The position numbers were made by a program, and so were the translations under genes. From positions 1 to 40,203 of the forward strand of contig JABAAY010000004.1 of assembly GCA_014238525.1 (NCBI GenBank): DNA of 40,203 bases. Direction: 5' to 3'. Position 1 is the first letter of the stretch. The number at the start of each line of letters is the position of its first letter. A model generated the notes under the pieces. It was not told where the DNA came from. It worked only from the letters and a program-made list of their open reading frames with translations, and searched no databases. This stretch comes from Mycoplasmatales bacterium (GTDB taxonomy: Bacteria; Bacillota_I; Bacilli_A; Mycoplasmatales; JABAAY01). Shown one piece after another: positions 11,947 to 35,404 of this stretch.

Positions 11947-13176
11947 ATGAACAAAAAAAATAAAATCATAACGACGGCGCTGGGAGCAGGTGTGTTGGGA
12001 AGTGGAATTGCATTAACCGCAATTGCACAGGCATGTACTGATGATTCCCCAGCGATTGATCCACAACAAGAAGAAGCAATAAACACAATAACCACTGAAT
12101 TGAATGCGGTAACTTCCTACAGAGAAGGGGATATTCCTGATGGTATTTTGTGAGAACTACTTAGACTAGCTATAAACGATAGTGATTCTGCAGCAGTGAA
12201 TGTACTAGAGTGAAATTTTAGTACGATTTCTGCTGAAGATATTTCTGTTTCCGGATATGACTATACAGTTCAATTAAATAATTTCCAGGGACTTTTTAAT
12301 GATGGACAAGTTGTCATGCAGGCGACGCCTTCGACTTCTGTCTCGTGAGTGTTGAGAAACAGAAATGTAAATGATAGCATTGGACAATTAGCTTTGAGAA
12401 CGGTTTCTCTAGATGATATTTCTGCCTCAAGACAGAATGATCAAACAATTATTGCGGAAGTTAACACTTTATCTAATTATAATGTCAGTACTTCTCAACC
12501 TTCAGGCCTTGCCTTAGAGTTGTTAACAGCCATTGAATCAAATATCACAGGTAGTTATCCGTTTGGTGCCCTTACTTTGTCAACACTAACTTTTAGTGAA
12601 TTAAATTCCTCAAGAGTTTTTCCGTTTAATACTAGCGGAGAAAACAATATTTATTCGATAAATATCGACATTGCTTCAGGAGTTGCTGCTTCTGGAACTG
12701 AAACAATATCCGTTGCAGGCAGTATGATTATTGCTGTTGAGGTAAGTAACATCAATAATTTTGCAATTAGTGCAACAACAGGCGTTACAGGCGTAACGCT
12801 TGGTGACGAGGCTTTGCGTGATACTATTCGTACAGCGGTAAATCAATTTTCCAATTACGATTCAATGGTTGGTGTAACCGATGCTTTAGCCTTGGCAATT
12901 CTTCCTGTCCTTAATTCCACAATACAAACTGTGTATGGAGAGCCTTCTGCAACTTTACTTACTTTAAATTTCAATATGGTCACATCCACCGACACATTAA
13001 TATCCCCTAGCAGCACTAACTATAATATTGGGTTTATTTCCATTACAAGTGCGACGATTAGCACTGATTCGGGTCCCTTTACTATTAATGATATTAATTT
13101 CAGAATCACAATCGGCGCTAATAGTGATTTTACACTTGATGATCAGAATATCGCAGTTATAATACCTACCGTTTAG
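11947..13176 (+). CDS. Lipoprotein of the AQxC family, 409 aa, three ~120-aa repeats
   Basis: Basic N-region, Gly/Ala-rich H-region, AIAQA-C30; joins two track ORFs via three TGA codons; S/T/N/I-rich. Confidence 0.85.
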
Positions 13177-16373: not shown

Positions 16374-16980
16374 TTATTTACCTCTTTTTTCTGTGATAAT
16401 TGAAAATATAACTTTAGAAATATCTGCCGATAGAACTCTATGAAGTTTGCCGTTAAGTGCGTACGAAATCTTGCCATTAGTTTCAGAAACAACAATTGCA
16501 AAAACATCTGATTGTTCACTCGCTCCAACTGCGGCTCTGTGTCTACTCCCATAATTAGATGACATCTTTTTTTTTCATGGGAAGGTACGAGGCAACAGAA
16601 ATGACTCGATCTCCTCTAATTATTAATGCTCCATCGTGTAAAGGAGAGGTTTTTTGAAACAAAGCAACTATGATTTGTGGTTGAATAATGGAATCCATTG
16701 GTACTCCTAAATCTATGTAACTTTTGACCTGTACTTTTCTTTCGATTAATATTAATCCACCTATTTTGTTTTGTGATAATTCAGAAATGGCTGTTGCCAA
16801 TTTATTAGCAATTTGTTTTTTTAATTCAATTCCTGATAGTTTTTTTCGTCCACCAAAAAATGTTTTAGATTTAGCAATTAAAGGTTGTAGAAAAGCAAAG
16901 TATCCAAAAAGAATAAACAAAAATATCACCATACTAAATGTGACAGCGGTAAGTATTAAAACAGTTTGTAGCGGATCCAT
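16374..16980 (-). pseudogene. cdaA: Diadenylate cyclase (CdaA/DacA-type) interrupted by a frameshift at an A9 run (real or artefact)
   Basis: Frame 1 has an N-terminal TM, GGLILIER and SPLHDGA, then ends at TAA 16555. Frame 2 carries YGSRHRAAVGASEQSD...VVSETNGKIS. Total span is 607 nt (3n+1). Confidence 0.9.
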
Positions 16981-17069: not shown

Positions 17070-19631
17070 CTATGAAGTAGCGCCAATATTCATTCAAGTA
17101 CCGGTGATAATTACATTGCTTGCAAAGGTGACCCCAGTGATTGTTACATTTTCACCATTAATTGCTCCAAAACTTGTTTGTACAGTATTTAGATCGTAAG
17201 TTCCCGTGACTTCGGTAAGTGTTATTGTGTATGTAGGAGTATCCCCCGCACCACCAGCGTCTGTTCTTTGAACAGAAGTTCCTAGAAGACCTCCTGCTGC
17301 TAGTGAATTAACATCTTCAACTGGAACACTTAATGCTGTGGCAAGTTGATTTATTAAAAACACTGCACTTGGAGAGGTTGGAAGAATAGTTGAAAAACTC
17401 ATTCTTTGCACGATCGCATGTATTTCAATTTCTCTGCTGTCTACTGGCACAATACCGCTAACGCCTGTTTCAGGGTTAATTGACAAAGAAGCACCGTCAA
17501 ATCCTATTGAAACTCTCATTTCTCCAGAAAACGAATCTTGATTGGAAAGAGTGTTAACAACAGGCGCAAGTGCAATTCTGACTTCGTATCCTGAGCTGGT
17601 TGCTGTAATATTTGATGCACTAATGGATGCAAAAAATATGCTTGTAATTGTAGCGTTTGGTTCGCTAATATTAATGTGTGCAGTCATTGCACTTAACATT
17701 TCTTCAGCCAAAAGACCAAGATTGTTTATATCTGAACTGTTGTAATTCCTCAATTCATTAACATCACTTATTATTTGAGCAACAAATGTGCTTCCACTTA
17801 AACTTAAACCCGTGGTACCATCTGTAGCAATTGTAAACGAACCGCTTGTATAATCAATTGTTGTCACCGCAGTGCCACCAATGATTTCTCCTGTACTCGC
17901 AGTTCCCGTCATTGCCACACTAGCAGTAAAAATATCCCCTGATTCTGAAATGTCTTGAGTAGTAATTTCGGTAAAATTCAACTCCCTTACAGTGTTGCCT
18001 GTGGATACATCGGATAAATTATTATTTATAGAAACTAAGTAATTTTGCGCCAATCTTCCTATTTGTTGTCCTACAATGTATGAACTAATCTCATTAATAG
18101 CATTAACGATTACACTTTCATTAGGTAAATCGGACAAAGTAAGTCCCGTTACGCCGCCTGATGCAACAGATAATGTGGAGGTTACGGGATCATATGAAAT
18201 CGTTGCCACGGCATTTCCACTAATTGCCTGGCCGTCATCTGCTGTTCCTGTCATTGCTATAGTGACTGTATATACATTACTGTTCTCGCTTAAGTCTTCA
18301 GTAGTTATAGGTGAAAAGGTAAGACTCGTTACAAAAAGAGAATTATCCGCGCTTTCAGTTCGTATGTTATTATTAATTGCTGTTAAAAATTCTGCTGTTA
18401 CTCCCGATACCTGTGAGTTCGCTCTGTAGTCTTGCAAACCATTAATGCTTGTAACTATTCTATCTTCAACATTTCCTTCATTAACACCTAATCCAGTGAC
18501 AGTGCCTGCAACTAGAGTTTCACCAGAAATTGTAAATGAAGTGTTTATTTGCCCGGAAATAACATCATCCGTTGTAGTTAAACCTGTAACAGCGCCTGTT
18601 GAAACCGTATACTCGTTATTTGCGAATCTAATGGCTGCATTGTTTATTTGAGCAAACTGCATACTTTGAATGCTCGAGGAAGGGTCTGTTGCAAGATTAT
18701 TATTTATTTCTTGTAAAATGCTTCCAGCCAACCCTGTTGGTAAATTACTAGGGTTTATTGTGTAGTTGGAAAAAACATTTATAGCATCTCTTATGAATGC
18801 TGAGTTTTGGGGATTTATAATTTCAAGTTGTGAAACGCCTGTAACGCTTAAAACATCGTTTTGATTTGCTATAGCAACTCTGATTGTACCAAAGACGTCT
18901 CTAGAGATTTCAGAACTGCCGGAAGGTATATTTACTGTTGTTCCGCTCACAGAAAAATCAGCTTGAAAATTAGTGAATCCTTCTCCTGTAGTTGAAACAT
19001 TAGTGTTTTGTATTGGAGTAAATTGTAATGAGTCTAAAACATCTCCCTCTAGGTTGTTTCCAATTACAACATTTGTTTGAGCAATAAATTCTTCAGACAA
19101 ACCTGAATATATATTAGTTCTTGAATAATTATTTGTTGCATTTAAAGCAGAAACAATCTGACTAATAACTGCGGTGTTTGACACTTGTAAATTACTAACG
19201 TCAGAGGTTGCGGTGTCAATACTAAAATTTTCATTAACAAATCTAGCAGCAATAGTTATTGTGCCGGTTACAAGCAAGCTTGAGTTAGTTTCTCCACTTA
19301 TGTCGATATTAATCGACAATTCATTTGTAGTGCTATCGACAATAACGTTTTGGCTTTGCAATGCGGCAAAAGTTAGAGAATTAAGCTCTGAATTGGGCAC
19401 GCTGCTGGAAATTCCGTTATTGATTAAACTTATCACCTCTGTTTGGAAACCATCCGGACTAAAAGTCATTCTGTTGTATTGGTCAAGTCCGTTTAACTCA
19501 TTTGTGAAGGCAACGCTTCTATCTGTTGTAGGTTCAGAAGCACATGCTTGTGCAACGGCTGCTACCGCTACGCCGGTTCCTAATGCTGTTACACCCATTA
19601 AAGTTGCTAGTTTATTTTTGTTTTTTTTCAT
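17070..19631 (-). CDS. Large AQxC-family lipoprotein, 853 aa, six tandem ~115-aa repeats plus a C-terminal domain
   Basis: AVAQA-C30 lipobox; extends past TGA 17094 to TAG 17070; repeats visible by eye. Confidence 0.88.
17440..19508 (-). repeat. Six degenerate protein-level tandem repeats (112-121 aa)
   Basis: Anchor motif (I/F)xxx(I/L/V)NxxxxY starts at about 19508, 19157, 18794, 18458, 18110 and 17774, followed by 'INNN(L/I)', 'SLxF', 'ISG' and 'GVTGL'-like motifs. Confidence 0.85.
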
Positions 19632-19688: not shown

Positions 19689-20339
19689 TTATTTGATTTT
19701 TTTCAATCTATGTTTGTTTACTGTGACTGTAAAATCATTTATTAATACGAGAGTATACAAAGCCAAACCCAATACGAAATATAAGTCGCCAATGTTCGTA
19801 ATAAAGGAAACTTGACCGCGCGCGCCTGTAAAATACTGCCCTCAGTTTATATAAATGTAGTCTATAACAACCGGAAGTCCGTCTCGATTAGTAAAAATAA
19901 ATCTATCAACAAAATGACTAAATAAGCCTGTGAACATCAATCCCACAAATAAAGTGTGTGAAGATTTTTTAGTAAACAACAGCAGCAGCAATAATGGCGC
20001 TAATATGACAACGGAAACAATTCATATTCCCACCTGGTCTCGTCCTCCAGGAAAGGTGCCAAAGAATAAACCCTCGTTGCCAATTAAGTAAATTCCGAAA
20101 GCAGAAGTTGGTTCAGCTCTTCCTGTGGGAAAGTTATTCGTTGGTATTGTGTTAAATCCATAAATACTTGGATTGATAACAGCATAGACCGCAATAAGCC
20201 GTATGGATATGAAAATCAGAATCAAAAATAGAAAAATAAAAATTTTGCTAAAAATTATTTTTTTTAACCTTTGTTTGTTTGTTTGTTCTTTTAATTTTTT
20301 AAAATTCACTGATTTCTGCCTGTACAGTTTCTGAAACAT
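19689..20339 (-). CDS. lspA: Lipoprotein signal peptidase II, divergent
   Basis: Code 4: four hydrophobic segments, GNEGLFFG, GLFSHFVDRF, VVIDYI, ITNIGDLY (both catalytic Asp positions present). Start could be 20339 or 20390. Confidence 0.82.
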
Positions 20340-22266
20340 CTTGGGCAAAAATGTTTTTGCCGATGTACTCTCCACACAATAAAGAAACATCTAATTTCAT
20401 TGCAGTAATTAACAAAGTATGTGTGTCAATATTTATTAGAGCGGTTTCTATTTTGTTCTTTTTTATGTTATCTAATGATATCTTAAAGCCTTGTAATAAG
20501 GACCTATCCTTATGAACAGCATTAATGGTATACGGCTTAAAAAGTACAAAAGCTGGTTGGATTTTAGGAAGAAGTTCATGGTGTTTTTTGCTTTTGTAAT
20601 CAAAATTACTCAAAATTATTCTAATTTTATTTTCGTTTAATGTTTTTATTTTTTCAAGGAGCGTGTTTGTGATGGATGATAAATGTTCACAATTAAAGTC
20701 AATCATAATCTTGCTTGGGTTTATCCCAAAATTACGAATGCGTTCGACAAAAGAATGTGGATTAAATCATTCGTTATTTATAGAGCCTGCGTCATAAGTT
20801 ATGGCAAGGGGTTGTTTGGTGTTGCCCTGCAAAACGTATTGATTAATACTTAGTCCGGCGAAATACCTAAGCATTGTATCGTACAAAAATTTATCATATA
20901 CATAATCAAATAATTCTTTAACGTTGGAAAATCGATTCATCTTCGAAATATAGTAACGCGAGTTATAAAAAATGATTTTTGAATTAACTGAGGAAACGAC
21001 TGGCATGTATTCAACTTGTAAATCCCTTATGGGGAATAAATTAGATAAAGCACTAAATTTTTTGCTTTCTGTAATTCCTTCGTTTCATATCTTAGGGTTA
21101 AATATGGACACATGCTTACATTTGGTTGAATCAGGTTTTTGTAAAAAGTTCTTTTGATTGTAAGTCTCTAATTCTTCTAAAGAGTTAGAATGAACACCAT
21201 AATAACTCACTACACACCGCGGATTTATGCTTTTGTATTTGTTTTCGTTTTTTTGAATTTTTTTCTTAATGTTTAAAGCAGATTGTTCCAACAACAATAA
21301 GAAGTTGTCGTTTTTTAAGTGGTAATCTGGAGAGTCCATTTGCTCGCTAGAAACAACATTAGAGAGATTTTCAATTGGTTTAAATAATCCATATTGATCT
21401 TTTGTAATTTCAAAAAGCAAAATATCATCATTAGAATATGTGTGACCCAACTCATGCCGCAATTCATTAAGGAAAGACTGTTTTGCTCTTGTGCCGTGTT
21501 TAATTTCAAGAGTTTTTAATGCTTCGAAACCAAACGTTACAAAAAAACCAGCAGTTACATTTTTGATATTTATAAATTTTTCTATCTCAGTAAAAGCCAA
21601 GGAAGATCTGATAAATTTTTCATAAACGTATATGTTTACAATATTTAATTGAAATGCACTATTTACAACGGAAGTTATATAGGCAAAAGCAATAGAAAGA
21701 AGAGATAGAGAAAGAAAACTTCATAAAACACCATATAAGTTTGTGGTTTGATCAAGAGATGGGAAAGCCCTTGTTGGTGTAATAAAATAATAAATCAATA
21801 TTAGGCCCACAGTTTGAAAAATAATTGAAAGAACAATAGCTATGCTTTTATATTTTTTTAAAATAAGAGAAACAATTCAATAAAAAATAATTGCTACGAA
21901 GACAACAAGAAAAATTACATTGGTTTGTGTGCTTGATGAGTAATTAGCTAAATCAATTACCCAACTACTTGCAATAGTAAGAACGCCAACAATCGGATTT
22001 ATAAATATTCCTATCACCAAAGGGATTATTACGGCATAACTTATAGAAAAAAAGCTTTCCGTTGTTCTTTGAAATAACAAACTTTGGAATAAGTTTAGGA
22101 GAATAATGATCGCAGCTCATTCAAGAAAAATAACAGCACTATACACCTTTCTAAAATTGGAATTAATAAATGGCTGAAGAACAGCTCATGTCGTGGAAAA
22201 AATAATAATTATTAATAAAAGGAGTGCAAGATTAAGGAGAATTTCAAATACTATGGAATCTAACAT
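20299..22266 (-). CDS. Multi-pass membrane protein with degenerate GGDEF-like and EAL-like domains (655 aa)
   Basis: Four track ORFs share one frame from ATG 22266. About 200 aa of TM helices, then LEIKHG...LFEITKDQYGLF...VVSYYG (GGDEF-like layout), then VEYMPVV...GFKISLDNI...LLCGEYIGK (EAL-like layout). Confidence 0.7.
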
Positions 22267-22724: not shown

Positions 22725-23681
22725 ATGAATAATAGAAAAAGTAAATTTAAAAAAGTGTTTTTGGGTGGCATTGGCGGTGCTGCAGTTATTACAAGTGTTG
22801 TAGCACAGGCATGTGGCGATGATAGTTCTCAATTCATAAATCAAAATTTTATACTGAAAGAAATAAACTCTTTTTCAGAAAATTTTAGAATAAATGAACT
22901 TACCCAAAATCAAGAAAACATGCGAGACGGAATTTTAAATACTGTAAACAATTTAAACGCTGGAATATATAATCAAAATCCCGCACGCACAACATATGAT
23001 CTTCTAGCAAATATAAATTTTCCCGAGCTTTCAATTTCAAATATTCGTGTGGTTCCTGGTTCGTTCAATCAGGATTTTATAATAAACTATGATTCGCCAA
23101 TAACTTTTATTGGTCAGAGCACACAATTCGAAGGAATTAACAAAAACTTTTCAAACGTACAAAATAATAGCGGCACGACTATTTTGATTACATTAAGCGA
23201 TAAAATTATACAAAATTTTGGGATTTTAAATATTGCTGCCGTTAATTCTTCAGAAAAAATTACTTTGCCAACCTTCCTGAGTCGTTTAGATATTGAAATT
23301 CTTTTGAATAAATTATCCAATGCTCAACAAAACGAAATATTTGACTATCAAGAATCACCTTCTTTTTATTCCTTAATTTCGTTTATTAATGCATTAGGTA
23401 TTCAACAAGGTGTAGATTTTTTTGGTGGTCAAGGATTTTTATTTTTAGAAAATTTTACTTTCGAAAATATTATTGAATACAATGAACAAACACTAAAAGG
23501 AAGAATTTTTATAAAAAGGACTGATTTTGGTATTCGAATCGGTAGTGGGGTGTTCAACAGTCAGTGGCAATTGCCTGGTGGGCAATCCGCTCATTTATTT
23601 GAAGAAAGTGTTGTTTTATCTTTTGAAGTTTTCCTGGGCTCTGGTGTGGACGGCAACGACTTGATAAGTTTTTATGTATAA
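22725..23681 (+). CDS. AQxC-family lipoprotein, 318 aa
   Basis: MNNRKSKFKK...VVAQA-C30; N/I/F-rich mature region. Confidence 0.85.
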   Translation: MNNRKSKFKKVFLGGIGGAAVITSVVAQACGDDSSQFINQNFILKEINSFSENFRINELTQNQENMRDGILNTVNNLNAGIYNQNPARTTYDLLANINFPELSISNIRVVPGSFNQDFIINYDSPITFIGQSTQFEGINKNFSNVQNNSGTTILITLSDKIIQNFGILNIAAVNSSEKITLPTFLSRLDIEILLNKLSNAQQNEIFDYQESPSFYSLISFINALGIQQGVDFFGGQGFLFLENFTFENIIEYNEQTLKGRIFIKRTDFGIRIGSGVFNSQWQLPGGQSAHLFEESVVLSFEVFLGSGVDGNDLISFYV

Positions 23682-29264: not shown

Positions 29265-30362
29265 TTATTTTTTTTTCTTGTTATGATCATCTTTAATAAA
29301 ATAATCAATCTCGCCTAATATTTCGTTGGCTAATTTTTTATTTTCTTTTTTTGAGTCGTAATGTTCGTCAACAACATTTTCAGGATTATTAAAGGACTCG
29401 GTATTTAAGAGTCTTTCTTCAGGAATGGGTTCATTCTTATCTACAGGCATTTTCTCAGGTTCAATGCCAATAATTTTAGCATTAACATCTGAATCAATTA
29501 GCCCTGTAGCCTTTGATGCGAAATGGCCTACGTGTGCTACTTGAGGTTTGTCCCTCTTTGGAAGAATTGCATAGTGTCAAACAATAATTCAAATAAGAGC
29601 TGCCAAAGAGAATATGACGATTATTATTGCCGATACAAAAGAGAAACTACCCCCTAAAATATCTGAAGAGTTCCGAAAGTTCTCAGTAATGGCTCGGAAC
29701 GCACCTCATCAAATCCCTGTTATTGCTGCCCCCATTCCAATTCTGTATCCCTTTATTTTTGGAAATACAAAAACAACAAGGAAGAACAAGGTTAAATTAG
29801 ATAATGCCTCGTATAGAAATAACGGTTGCAGAAAGCCGGTGTTGCTGGTACCGGGCAAATGGAAAAATTCCGCAATTACTCTGAAAAAATTGGAAATACT
29901 TGCAATATCGAACGGCACATTCAGAAATATTTCCTGATTAAAATAATTCCCAAGCCTTCCTACTGCCTGTCCAACGACTAATGCAGGAACAATAGCTTCA
30001 AAATAAGTGAATACTGATACTCCTGTTTTTCAAGATGATCATCATATCCCGCCAATAATAATTGGAACGCCAACGATAAGAGCTCCCAATATGGAAAATC
30101 CTCGAATTCCGCCTGCATCAATCCCGAAAAAGAGTCGTCAAAAGGCTATAAAACCTCCAATATTGTCTAATTCTCCACTAAATATTAGGGAGGCAAGTCT
30201 CGCTCCAAACAAAGCAAAAATAGCAAAAACAAAAAATCCTATTTCAACATGAAGTAAGTCTATTCCTCTTCGTTTTGACCTAACTAAACTTATAGCAAGA
30301 GCAATAAGTATTCCAGATGCAAAGAAAACACCATATCAATTAAACCCTGAAAAATCTACCAT
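29265..30362 (-). CDS. lgt: Prolipoprotein diacylglyceryl transferase with a charged C-terminal extension, 365 aa
   Basis: FNW(TGA)YG, FGARL, GQAVGRLGNYFNQE, QPLFLYE, FRAITENFR. Confidence 0.94.
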
Positions 30363-30881: not shown

Positions 30882-31478
30882 CTACGAAGTGGGAGGGTTT
30901 GGAAATATTTCGACAAAATTAGTTGCATTAGCTTGCACACCGAATGAATTAGCATTTATTTGAGGTCTTTGATTCGAATCAAGTGATGCAGTTATAACTA
31001 TCATAAAACCAGGAGTATTGTTTGCAGCGCCTCCTCATATTCCTCTATTAGAAACTCCTCCAGAAGAAAGTGATGCTGTAACAAGTAACTCGGTAATTGT
31101 AATAGTAAACATGTTACTATCTTCGTCAAAGGCTACGTTAGAATTCTCCAAAGTGCCGATATAAACGTTATTTAATGTGATTGGTTCAAGATCTGTGTCG
31201 GTTGGACTGGCTGTGGGCGTTCCGCCCATCATATTGTTATAAATTAATACTCTTGCTCCTCGTACAAAGTCTCTTTGAATTTGAGTTTGGGGATTCTCGA
31301 GATTAAATATTCCAGAATCAAAATTATTAAGATCGTTCACTATTTCTTCAATATTGTCGGTTGTTGTTGTTCCAGTGGCACACATTTGAGCAACCGCTCC
31401 AATTGTTGTTGCGCCTGCAAGAGTTGTAATTCCTAATGCCGCGGAAATGATTTTTGTATTTTTGCTTTTTTTATTCAT
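30882..31478 (-). CDS. AQxC-family lipoprotein, 198 aa
   Basis: AVAQM-C33; AGAAGG SD upstream; extends past TGA 31035 to TAG 30882. Confidence 0.85.
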
Positions 31479-34414: not shown

Positions 34415-35404
34415 ATGAAGAAAAAATACAAAAAAATATTCAAAATATTTTCGTTATCCTCAATAGGTGCGTCTTCAACTGTTCTGGTTGCTCAATCGTG
34501 TTCCAATATTCCTTCTGCTCCTCCGGAAATTCTCAATGATTTAAGTATTATCTTTGCCAACTTAAATCATAATAATTTGAATGTGAACACGTCTCCTGAA
34601 ACGGAAGTGATACTGGATAGTTTTTTAGATGTGATTAATGCTTCTACTTCCCTCCAAAGCATTGATGAAAATTTTGATGAAATTTTAGCAATGAATAATC
34701 TTTCTGTACAAAGTATAACGGACGAGGGTGGTGGTGCTTTTCGTATATCCTTGCCTACAACAGTCACAATAGAGGTCAGAAATTCCAAAATTTCTGCCTC
34801 ACAAACAACAATAAAATTGCAAAATACCACAATTAATTTTTTTCTTGTTGTTAGAACATCTAATGATTCAGAAATAAATTTTTCAACCGTTTCACTTCCT
34901 AATAATGATTTTGAATATGTCTTTGATAGGGATTATTCAAACTCTCAAATAAACAGTTTATTTACTAGCACTATTTTAGAAACAATTAACGCTACTTCTC
35001 CTACGAAGGGATCTTTATTAAGAAGTTCTGCGAATGATAATGCAAATTTTAATTTACTGGAAACAGAAATCAATGGCAATTATAATTTTTTAAGTGTTCG
35101 TGGTTTTGTTCACAAACTAAATTCTTTATTGCTTTCGCCTAACTCAACATTTACAAATGGAATTTTTGCTCCACTTGAAGGCGGAGAATACGGAATTTCC
35201 TTAACTTGAGACAACATGAGTCGAACTGGGATTTTAACTTTTAGTGATTCCTCGGTTTTTTCTAGAGTGGAAATGGATGGAACTGTTGTTAACGATTCTT
35301 GATTAGAAAATAATACAGAAGTGTTTACAAACTTTCGTTCTCCCTTAAATTTGTCTTTTACAATTGTGCAAACAAGTTCTGAATTGGCAACCTTTCTATT
35401 TTAA
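34415..35404 (+). CDS. AQxC-family lipoprotein, 329 aa
   Basis: MKKKYKKIFK...VLVAQS-C29; open to TAA 35404. Confidence 0.83.

Follow-up and report, generated by a model that had tools for sequence, protein, structure and literature searches.

Two lipoproteins encoded in a 40,203-nucleotide window of an uncultured mollicute genome (Mycoplasmatales bacterium, GenBank assembly GCA_014238525.1, contig JABAAY010000004.1; the window is this whole stretch of DNA) contain six and three tandem copies of a unit of about 115 amino acids (aa). By sequence comparison, the unit is a genuine domain, probably one that folds autonomously, and the founder of a small, lineage-restricted sequence family, most members of which carry a lipobox. 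Structure prediction gives the single unit a compact NTF2-like fold, and we lean slightly towards a structural role, in which lipid-anchored rods of two to ten such units would form an outer layer on a wall-less cell.

The window corresponds to contig C72 of a 666 kb assembly (G000) in 127 contigs that is 77% complete, and has a GC content of 32%. Translation with genetic code table 11 leaves many window genes fragmented, whereas with table 4 (TGA read as Trp) the open reading frames (ORFs) are whole; the organism is thus a mollicute in which TGA is read as tryptophan.

A repeated domain and its lipoprotein family

The larger of the two genes (17070-19631, reverse strand; TGA read as Trp) encodes an 853-aa lipoprotein. 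As judged from the translation it begins with a signal peptide and lipobox (aa 1-30, MKKNKNK...AVAQAC, with Cys30; 19542-19631), which are followed by units A1 (aa 38-154; 19170-19520), A2 (aa 155-275; 18807-19169), A3 (aa 276-387; 18471-18806), A4 (aa 388-503; 18123-18470), A5 (aa 504-615; 17787-18122) and A6 (aa 616-734; 17430-17786), and by a C-terminal tail of 119 aa (aa 735-853; 17073-17429), all on the reverse strand. The anchor motifs of the six units lie at aa 42, 159, 280, 392, 508 and 620 (nucleotide 19508 to about 17440), with spacings of 117, 121, 112, 116 and 112 aa, exactly as given in a preliminary description of this DNA that was made from the sequence without database searches. 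The smaller gene (11947-13176, forward strand) encodes a 409-aa lipoprotein in which a signal peptide and lipobox, again from the translation (aa 1-30, ...AIAQAC; 11947-12036), precede units B1 (aa 44-163; 12076-12435), B2 (aa 164-289; 12436-12813) and B3 (aa 290-409; 12814-13173), all on the forward strand. The three anchors that had been described for it are found at aa 48, 168 and 294, and the protein terminates with unit B3. We note that an A8 homopolymer (window 19621-19628) lies in codons 2-4 of the 853-aa gene (ATG AAA AAA AAC), a potential slippage site of a kind usual for K-rich mollicute signal peptides.

In an all-against-all BLASTP comparison of the nine units, with E-values computed for a 10-sequence database, 11 of the 36 pairs align at E<1e-3, all of them in register, and every unit is linked to the others by at least one such pair. 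The closest pair is A4 and A5 (40% identity over 112 aa, E 5.9e-23); B2 is 34% identical to A1 (E 6e-10), and B3 is linked to B2 at E 1.6e-4. Hidden Markov model (HMM) domain E-values are 1.2e-31 for A1, 7e-28 for A2, 8.6e-31 for A3, 2.4e-33 for A6, 7.5e-31 for B1, 1.4e-31 for B2 and 1.1e-24 for B3.

An HMM built from the nine units, a check that the preliminary description had proposed, finds additional multi-unit ORFs on contigs C39, C11, C50, C48 and C74. Upon iteration it recovers nine real ORFs at E<=1e-3, eight of which have a lipobox, and gives no match at E<=1 among 3,234 reversed and 3,234 shuffled ORFs; a modular unit shared by dispersed lipoproteins, as had been proposed, is therefore real. 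Deeper iteration at maximum sensitivity converges over eight rounds on 13 ORFs of this genome and, in a set of 3,348 sequences, on 145 domains in 45 proteins, again recruiting no reversed decoy. The 13 members constitute roughly one third to two-fifths of the recognisable lipoproteins of the genome (∼27-30 ORFs with an A-Q-x-C lipobox), and their genes are dispersed over at least nine contigs. Proteins of this genome have two to six units each, and metagenomic relatives have up to ten.

The units commonly account for the whole protein beyond the signal peptide. Domain envelopes tile aa 41-623 of a 623-aa ORF on contig C39, a 290-aa ORF from aa 46 to its end at aa 290, and, in the 412-aa ORF that encodes the 409-aa protein, aa 47-412; neighbouring envelopes either abut or share a few residues. 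Linkers between units are ∼0-3 residues long, and that between the putatively lipidated Cys and the first unit is ∼8-17 residues. In many members the C-terminus of the protein is the final strand of the last unit; the 409-, 620-, 567- and 284-aa proteins and the 1,212-aa relative P0008 stop exactly at a unit end and have no tip. Other members join units to further unrecognised regions (the 918-, 452- and 429-aa proteins); the first two of these carry their units at the C-terminus. A Pfam scan of these fusion partners and of the other family proteins gave nothing over noise.

Two members deserve separate description. The 918-aa protein (G000:C11:10611-13364), a lysine-poor lipoprotein, has two C-terminal units and an N-terminal part of ∼660 aa without a Pfam match, in which a ∼125-aa helix-helix-strand periodicity can be seen by eye; this part is possibly related to the module, though more diverged. 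The member on contig C48 (G000:C48:2661-4079; P0024) has a signal-anchor-like N-terminus in place of the lipobox and is lysine-rich (6.2% K).

The tail of the 853-aa protein was considered as a seventh, degenerate unit and rejected, as its hhalign match to a 60-unit profile spans only nine columns (E 0.095) and it was never recruited during iteration. Its phmmer matches are orthologs only, and it is kept in the sister genome (a congener, G001) with a ratio of nonsynonymous to synonymous substitution rates (dN/dS) of 0.20. Nor could we support the suggestion that a similar first helix follows the lipobox in other window lipoproteins. The three candidates (22725-23681, 30882-31478 and 34415-35404; 318, 198 and 329 aa, without a Pfam family) do not significantly match the unit profile by hhalign (E 0.13, 0.039 and 0.05), have best phmmer E-values of at least 0.11, and were never recruited across the eight rounds. 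For the 198-aa protein the hhalign alignment is in register over 71 columns (E 0.039) and the best phmmer matches are family members (E 0.11-0.12), which we take as a hint only. The 318-aa protein is 74% identical to its counterpart in G001 (dN/dS 0.147).

The family has a narrow distribution. A word-indexed search with the whole 853-aa protein returned the protein itself, an ortholog at 83% identity, a fragment and one relative at 27%, and a search for related loci with the same protein found only a contig of G001. An exhaustive profile search of 1,835,955,588 representative proteins yielded 18 matches at E<=1e-3, 13 of them at E<=1e-10; these have up to ten units in 1,212 aa, and nearly all start with MKK...AQxC. 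The nine-unit profile is positive in three of 41 genomes of the same order. With the 60-unit profile, three of 398 scored genomes of the order are positive at E<=1e-5 (three further genomes were not scored), namely this genome, G001, and G010, a genome of another family in the order; the 60-unit profile includes G010 units, although G010 matched the nine-unit profile without them as well (E 2.4e-4). The domain was not found in the other 395 genomes searched, in which the three largest families are represented by 132, 131 and 79 genomes.

No described domain family was matched by sequence. Pfam gave nothing with the whole 853- and 409-aa proteins, and the sole NCBIfam match, NF040628, is noise (13.7 bits, with the cut-off at 75). 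When 60 single units were compared to Pfam, no family was matched by more than one unit, and the best E-value (0.003) is to the unrelated DUF4828; SnoaL matches one of the 60 units (E 0.093), and neither PF12870 (DUF4878) nor PF26061 (DUF8021) matches any unit at E<=1, or the whole proteins. A sequence-profile search of the PDB returned only 4p99_A, the MpAFP RII tetra-tandemer (E 0.043), a weak match that is probably compositional. The module is likewise not described among the papers retrieved by full-text literature searches on NTF2-like lipoproteins, mycoplasmas, tandem surface proteins and mollicute lipoprotein repeats. The unit is thus a clean new domain family and a candidate Pfam entry. 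The public protein P0010 (275 aa, window 12349-13176) is a table-11 truncation of the 409-aa protein that begins past its third in-frame TGA (W134); because gene calls with the wrong code cut such proteins short, the repeat family is fragmented in databases, which partially explains how it escaped notice.

Predicted fold and inter-unit joint

Using an alignment of 60 units drawn from G000, G001 and G010, AlphaFold2 models unit A4 with a mean predicted local distance difference test score (pLDDT) of 94.8 and a predicted template modelling score (pTM) of 0.87. The model has helices at residues 2-10 and 23-40 followed by strands at 47-52, 61-63, 66-77, 82-94 and 99-113, in agreement with the two helices and several strands anticipated from the sequence. 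The proposed terminal motif GVTG(L/V) is less general. In the 853-aa protein it is recognisable as G/x-[VT]-[TS]-G-[LIV] in five of the six units; in the 409-aa protein one of the three units has it, in a loose form only.

The predicted fold is a compact NTF2-like (cystatin-like) alpha+beta cone, with the two N-terminal helices packed into a strongly curved, five-stranded antiparallel sheet, as expected of the NTF2-like class with its five to six strands. The predicted-structure neighbours of the unit are almost uniformly NTF2-like or cystatin-like. No match to the single unit was found by Foldseek in the PDB at E<=1e-3 (best E 0.036) or in the BFVD viral fold library at the same threshold, and none of the 60 units has a significant match to the Pfam families of the class (SnoaL, DUF4440, DUF4878, MecA_N, VirB8 and others). 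The likeness to the NTF2-like superfamily (SnoaL, ketosteroid isomerase, scytalone dehydratase, NTF2) is therefore one of predicted fold, with no sequence relationship detected. Superfamily members usually have three helices, whereas the unit has two long ones, shows no conserved polar site and occurs in arrays of two to ten. That the unit could not be assigned to a known family consequently holds for its sequence but not for its predicted fold: the sequence family and the high-copy tandem architecture appear to be new, and the fold class, on the models, is a known one.

A two-unit model of A4-A5, made with an alignment of 39 unit pairs, has a pLDDT of 90.8 and a pTM of 0.77. This pTM exceeds what would be expected for two freely hinged 113-residue domains and suggests that there is a defined joint between units; together with the linkers of ∼0-3 residues, it is compatible with the coat or stalk of concatenated modules that had been proposed. 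The only Foldseek matches of the two-unit model in the PDB at E<=1e-3 are the four chains of the conjugation protein TcpC, which has two NTF2-like domains (3ub1; E 4.9e-4 to 9.6e-4), followed by a tandem iota-carbonic anhydrase, the VirB8-like OrfG (E 1.3e-3), fetuin-B and latexin. All of these matches have a root-mean-square deviation (rmsd) of ∼13-21 Å and a template modelling (TM) score of ∼0.2, and the likeness therefore consists of two such domains in a row and not of a shared arrangement.

The columns conserved in the unit alignment comprise hydrophobic residues of core type, spaced with a helical or an alternating period, together with N10 (88%), Y15 (97%), N33, G75 (87%) and G85 (79%). 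Charged residues predominate at no column, and the strand positions that face outward vary among Ser, Thr and Asn. This pattern looks like that of a scaffold and not of an enzyme or a specific binding site.

Array stability, surface composition and gene context

The arrays are old. There is no ∼345-nucleotide periodicity, the period of the unit, and no long direct repeat at the DNA level, from which it follows that the unit copies are ancient, as had been surmised from their divergence. In a quick tree of the units, for which support was computed solely as the Shimodaira-Hasegawa-like approximate likelihood ratio test (SH-aLRT), the nine window units each form a pair with the G001 ortholog at the same position (SH-aLRT 87-100; 100 for A1, A3 and B1, and 99 for A2 and A6), with long branches between units. 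The larger protein is 853 aa here and 854 aa in G001, with the same number and order of units, and synteny between the two genomes is kept.

Between these genomes dN/dS is 0.149 for the 853-aa lipoprotein and 0.085 for the 409-aa lipoprotein. ParA, ParB, MgtE, SmpB, LspA and an EAL protein range from 0.002 to 0.08 (ParA 0.002, ParB 0.012, SmpB 0.021, MgtE 0.029), and a BPL (biotin/lipoate ligase family) protein has 0.278; dS is ∼0.7-1.4, near saturation, so that all of these ratios are rough. Contigs of sequencing runs from two studies, one of these runs possibly being the source sample, tile the 853-aa gene at >=99% identity with point differences only, and show no indels or joints. The arrays are constrained, stable genes and not size-variable antigens.

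The lipobox of these proteins, encoded at 19542-19556 in the 853-aa gene, is an unusual and nearly invariant A-Q-x-C (AVAQAC, AVAQGC, AVAQQC), as opposed to the canonical L-[AS]-[GA]-C, and is accompanied in ∼27-30 ORFs of the genome by the same K-rich n-region and hydrophobic core. A lipobox Cys behind a signal peptide, together with lgt and lspA genes in the window, is what is expected of bacterial lipoproteins, and Cys30 is presumably lipid-modified.

Past the signal peptide, the family is nearly devoid of lysine. Mature family proteins have three Lys in 4,796 residues (0.1%), compared to 9.0% in the long ORFs of the genome; they have no Cys and an isoelectric point of ∼4. The mature 853-aa protein has no Lys in 823 residues, although its signal peptide has four. 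The metagenomic relatives P0004-P0023 have at most two Lys each, with P0024, which lacks the lipobox, as the exception. Genome-wide, the 30 proteins with an AQxC lipobox have a median of 0.24% K in their mature parts compared to 10.2% in 498 other genes, and of the 31 genes with less than 2% K, 26 have a lipobox. Lysine depletion thus spans the whole lipoprotein surfaceome, which in the window comprises the five lipobox ORFs listed below.

At the window and at seven other family loci the neighbours are unrelated housekeeping genes, as annotated with Pfam for 34 window ORFs and for 44 of the 68 ORFs called at the other loci. Those of the window include thymidine kinase, aldolase, CTP synthase, transketolase, ArgRS, GluRS, MetRS and YchF, as well as ParAB, MgtE, UvrA, SmpB, SecG, WhiA, Lgt and LspA. 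Scattered between them are five lipobox ORFs without a Pfam family (11947-13176, 17070-19631, 22725-23681, 30882-31478 and 34415-35404). Elsewhere the neighbours include the pyruvate dehydrogenase (PDH) complex, GroEL, DnaB, SSB, LysRS, PtsI, HIT, SufBD and an M17 peptidase. No transporter, nuclease, recombinase or secretion gene recurs at the examined loci.

The gene for signal peptidase II, lspA (19689-20390, reverse strand; PF01252, E 3.7e-9), lies on the same strand as the 853-aa gene and upstream of it across a 57-nucleotide gap that has no long tract; the arrangement is the same in G001. The lgt gene (29265-30362) is a few kb from another lipoprotein gene. A DAC (diadenylate cyclase) ORF at 16555-16980 encodes 141 aa and covers positions 2-77 of the 119 in the model, whereas the syntenic ORF in G001 encodes 203 aa; the shorter form may reflect a truncation, a frameshift or an assembly error.

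Possible roles of the arrays on the cell surface

The scaffold-like conservation, the tiling of whole ectodomains, the lipoprotein signal, the predicted joint, the stability of the arrays, the lack of an operon partner and the surface-type composition together point to a structural coat or stalk. We consider it somewhat probable that the unit is a structural module and that the proteins are lipid-anchored rods of two to ten NTF2-like cones, forming a lysine-free, acidic, hydroxyl-rich outer layer on the wall-less cell and joined in some proteins to other regions. The N-terminal lipidated Cys would tether head-to-tail strings of units to the membrane through a short linker, and concatenation would give rods of graded length that make up an exposed protein coat, or a layer of stalks or spacers. 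A few proteins would add non-repeat regions to the rod, either distally, as with the 119-aa tail of the 853-aa protein, or close to the membrane, as in the 918-aa protein.

Several considerations weigh against this structural role. In other proteins, NTF2-like domains frequently bind ligands or act as enzymes, and a purely structural function would be an argument from missing conserved polar sites. The case is made from sequence and predicted structure, and the fold comes from AlphaFold2 with an alignment from only three genomes. The pTM is only an indirect indicator of rigidity, and the rod geometry, an NTF2-type pocket and the inter-unit interface are putative. Finally, one member, on contig C48 (P0024), is lysine-rich and has no lipobox.

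A modular adhesin, in which the array is a stalk with a binding tip or the units themselves bind a host surface, overlaps with the structural role and is the best of the alternatives, although we regard it as unlikely. According to the available text of PMC9704523, bacterial adhesin stalks are typically assembled from folded domains arrayed in tandem. The 853-aa protein does have a distinct tail, putatively distal to the membrane and conserved in G001, and the 918-, 452- and 429-aa members pair units with other unrecognised regions. However, most members end exactly with a unit and have no distinct tip, the units of the 918- and 452-aa proteins are C-terminal and would hence be distal, which is not stalk-like, and no known adhesive domain is found. 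The stalk-forming 'periscope proteins' (SasG/Rib type) and MpIBP region II share with the arrays the concept of a length set by the number of small folded domains. Their domains are Ig-like and all-beta, with near-identical DNA repeats, variable copy number and anchoring by LPXTG or a type I secretion system (T1SS), whereas the units described here are diverged and alpha+beta by prediction, have a fixed copy number and are putatively lipid-anchored.

Alternatively, the arrays could be multivalent ligand binders, in which each unit would retain the hydrophobic cone pocket usual in the superfamily and take up small hydrophobics such as sterols, lipids or pigments from the host or sea water, for a cell unable to synthesise them. 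The top structural neighbours of the unit include binders of cortisol, apixaban and vitamin D3 (designed or natural), ketosteroid isomerase and bile-acid dehydratase, all of which have pockets of this kind, and mollicutes depend on external lipids. Yet the unit is small (115 aa, with two helices), its strongly conserved inward positions are hydrophobic and core-like, no polar or charged column is conserved, and genes for transporters or lipid handling do not recur among the neighbours. We think such a function rather improbable.

It is very doubtful that the proteins are, like Vlp, Vsp or Vsa of mycoplasmas, variable surface antigens that serve phase and size variation and immune escape. The family does resemble Vlp, Vsp, Vsa and Vpma in being a multigene, repeat-containing set of mollicute lipoproteins, presumably at the surface, and it evolves faster than housekeeping genes. 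This interpretation is nevertheless contradicted at several points. In the mycoplasma systems the repeats are short, of low complexity and identical in DNA, the loci are clustered and switchable, and size varies; no such feature was found for this family, in which the repeats are 20-40% identical and have no DNA-level counterpart. Copy number and unit order are the same between species, and contigs from the two studies contain no indels. These genes occur one at a time, scattered among housekeeping genes; neither a recombinase nor a tract-bearing promoter was seen, and dN/dS values of 0.09-0.15 indicate purifying selection.

A VirB8/TcpC-like scaffold of a conjugation or secretion machine is scarcely credible, even though the TcpC chains are the only PDB matches of the two-unit model at E<=1e-3 and TcpC and the VirB8-like OrfG, TraM and PrgL of Gram-positive conjugation are the only solved proteins known to have tandem extracellular, membrane-tethered NTF2-like domains, because those proteins have one or two such domains (as stated in the available text of PMC12857230), a transmembrane anchor and a place in type IV secretion system (T4SS) clusters, whereas here there are up to ten units, a lipobox and 13 paralogs in the genome, no VirB4, VirD4 or VirB6-type gene or other T4SS gene lies near the examined loci, and with an rmsd of ∼20 Å and a TM score of 0.2 the per-domain fold is shared but the inter-domain arrangement differs.

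A structural role for the arrays may be extended, more tentatively, to the lysine-free composition. It is conceivable, but in our opinion doubtful, that a lysine-free, acidic coat rich in Ser, Thr and Asn, with the module as its main brick, replaces a wall or S-layer on a wall-less, probably host-associated marine mollicute, and that lysine has been almost completely eliminated from the lipoprotein surfaceome as an adaptation that counters attack directed at lysine. Such attack could consist of Lys-specific proteolysis, of cross-linking by transglutaminase or thioester proteins, or of ubiquitin tagging if the bacterium is intracellular. The literature retrieved on lysine-free and lysine-poor proteins, as far as its available text extends, comprises only 'lysine desert' papers that are centred on avoidance of ubiquitin or pupylation and on GC-rich Actinobacteria, and does not discuss an extracellular strategy; the words extracellular, secreted and trypsin are absent from the available text of a 2026 review (PMC13696103).

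The arrays suggest that the widespread NTF2-like cone can serve as a brick that is strung together up to ten times, an architecture that we did not find described in the literature searched. A lysine-free surfaceome in an AT-rich genome is a sharp and testable signature of selection on a bacterial surface. If the proposed coat exists, it would represent an extracellular 'lysine desert' strategy in a genome of 32% GC, and could indicate a general route by which wall-less symbionts resist host defences.

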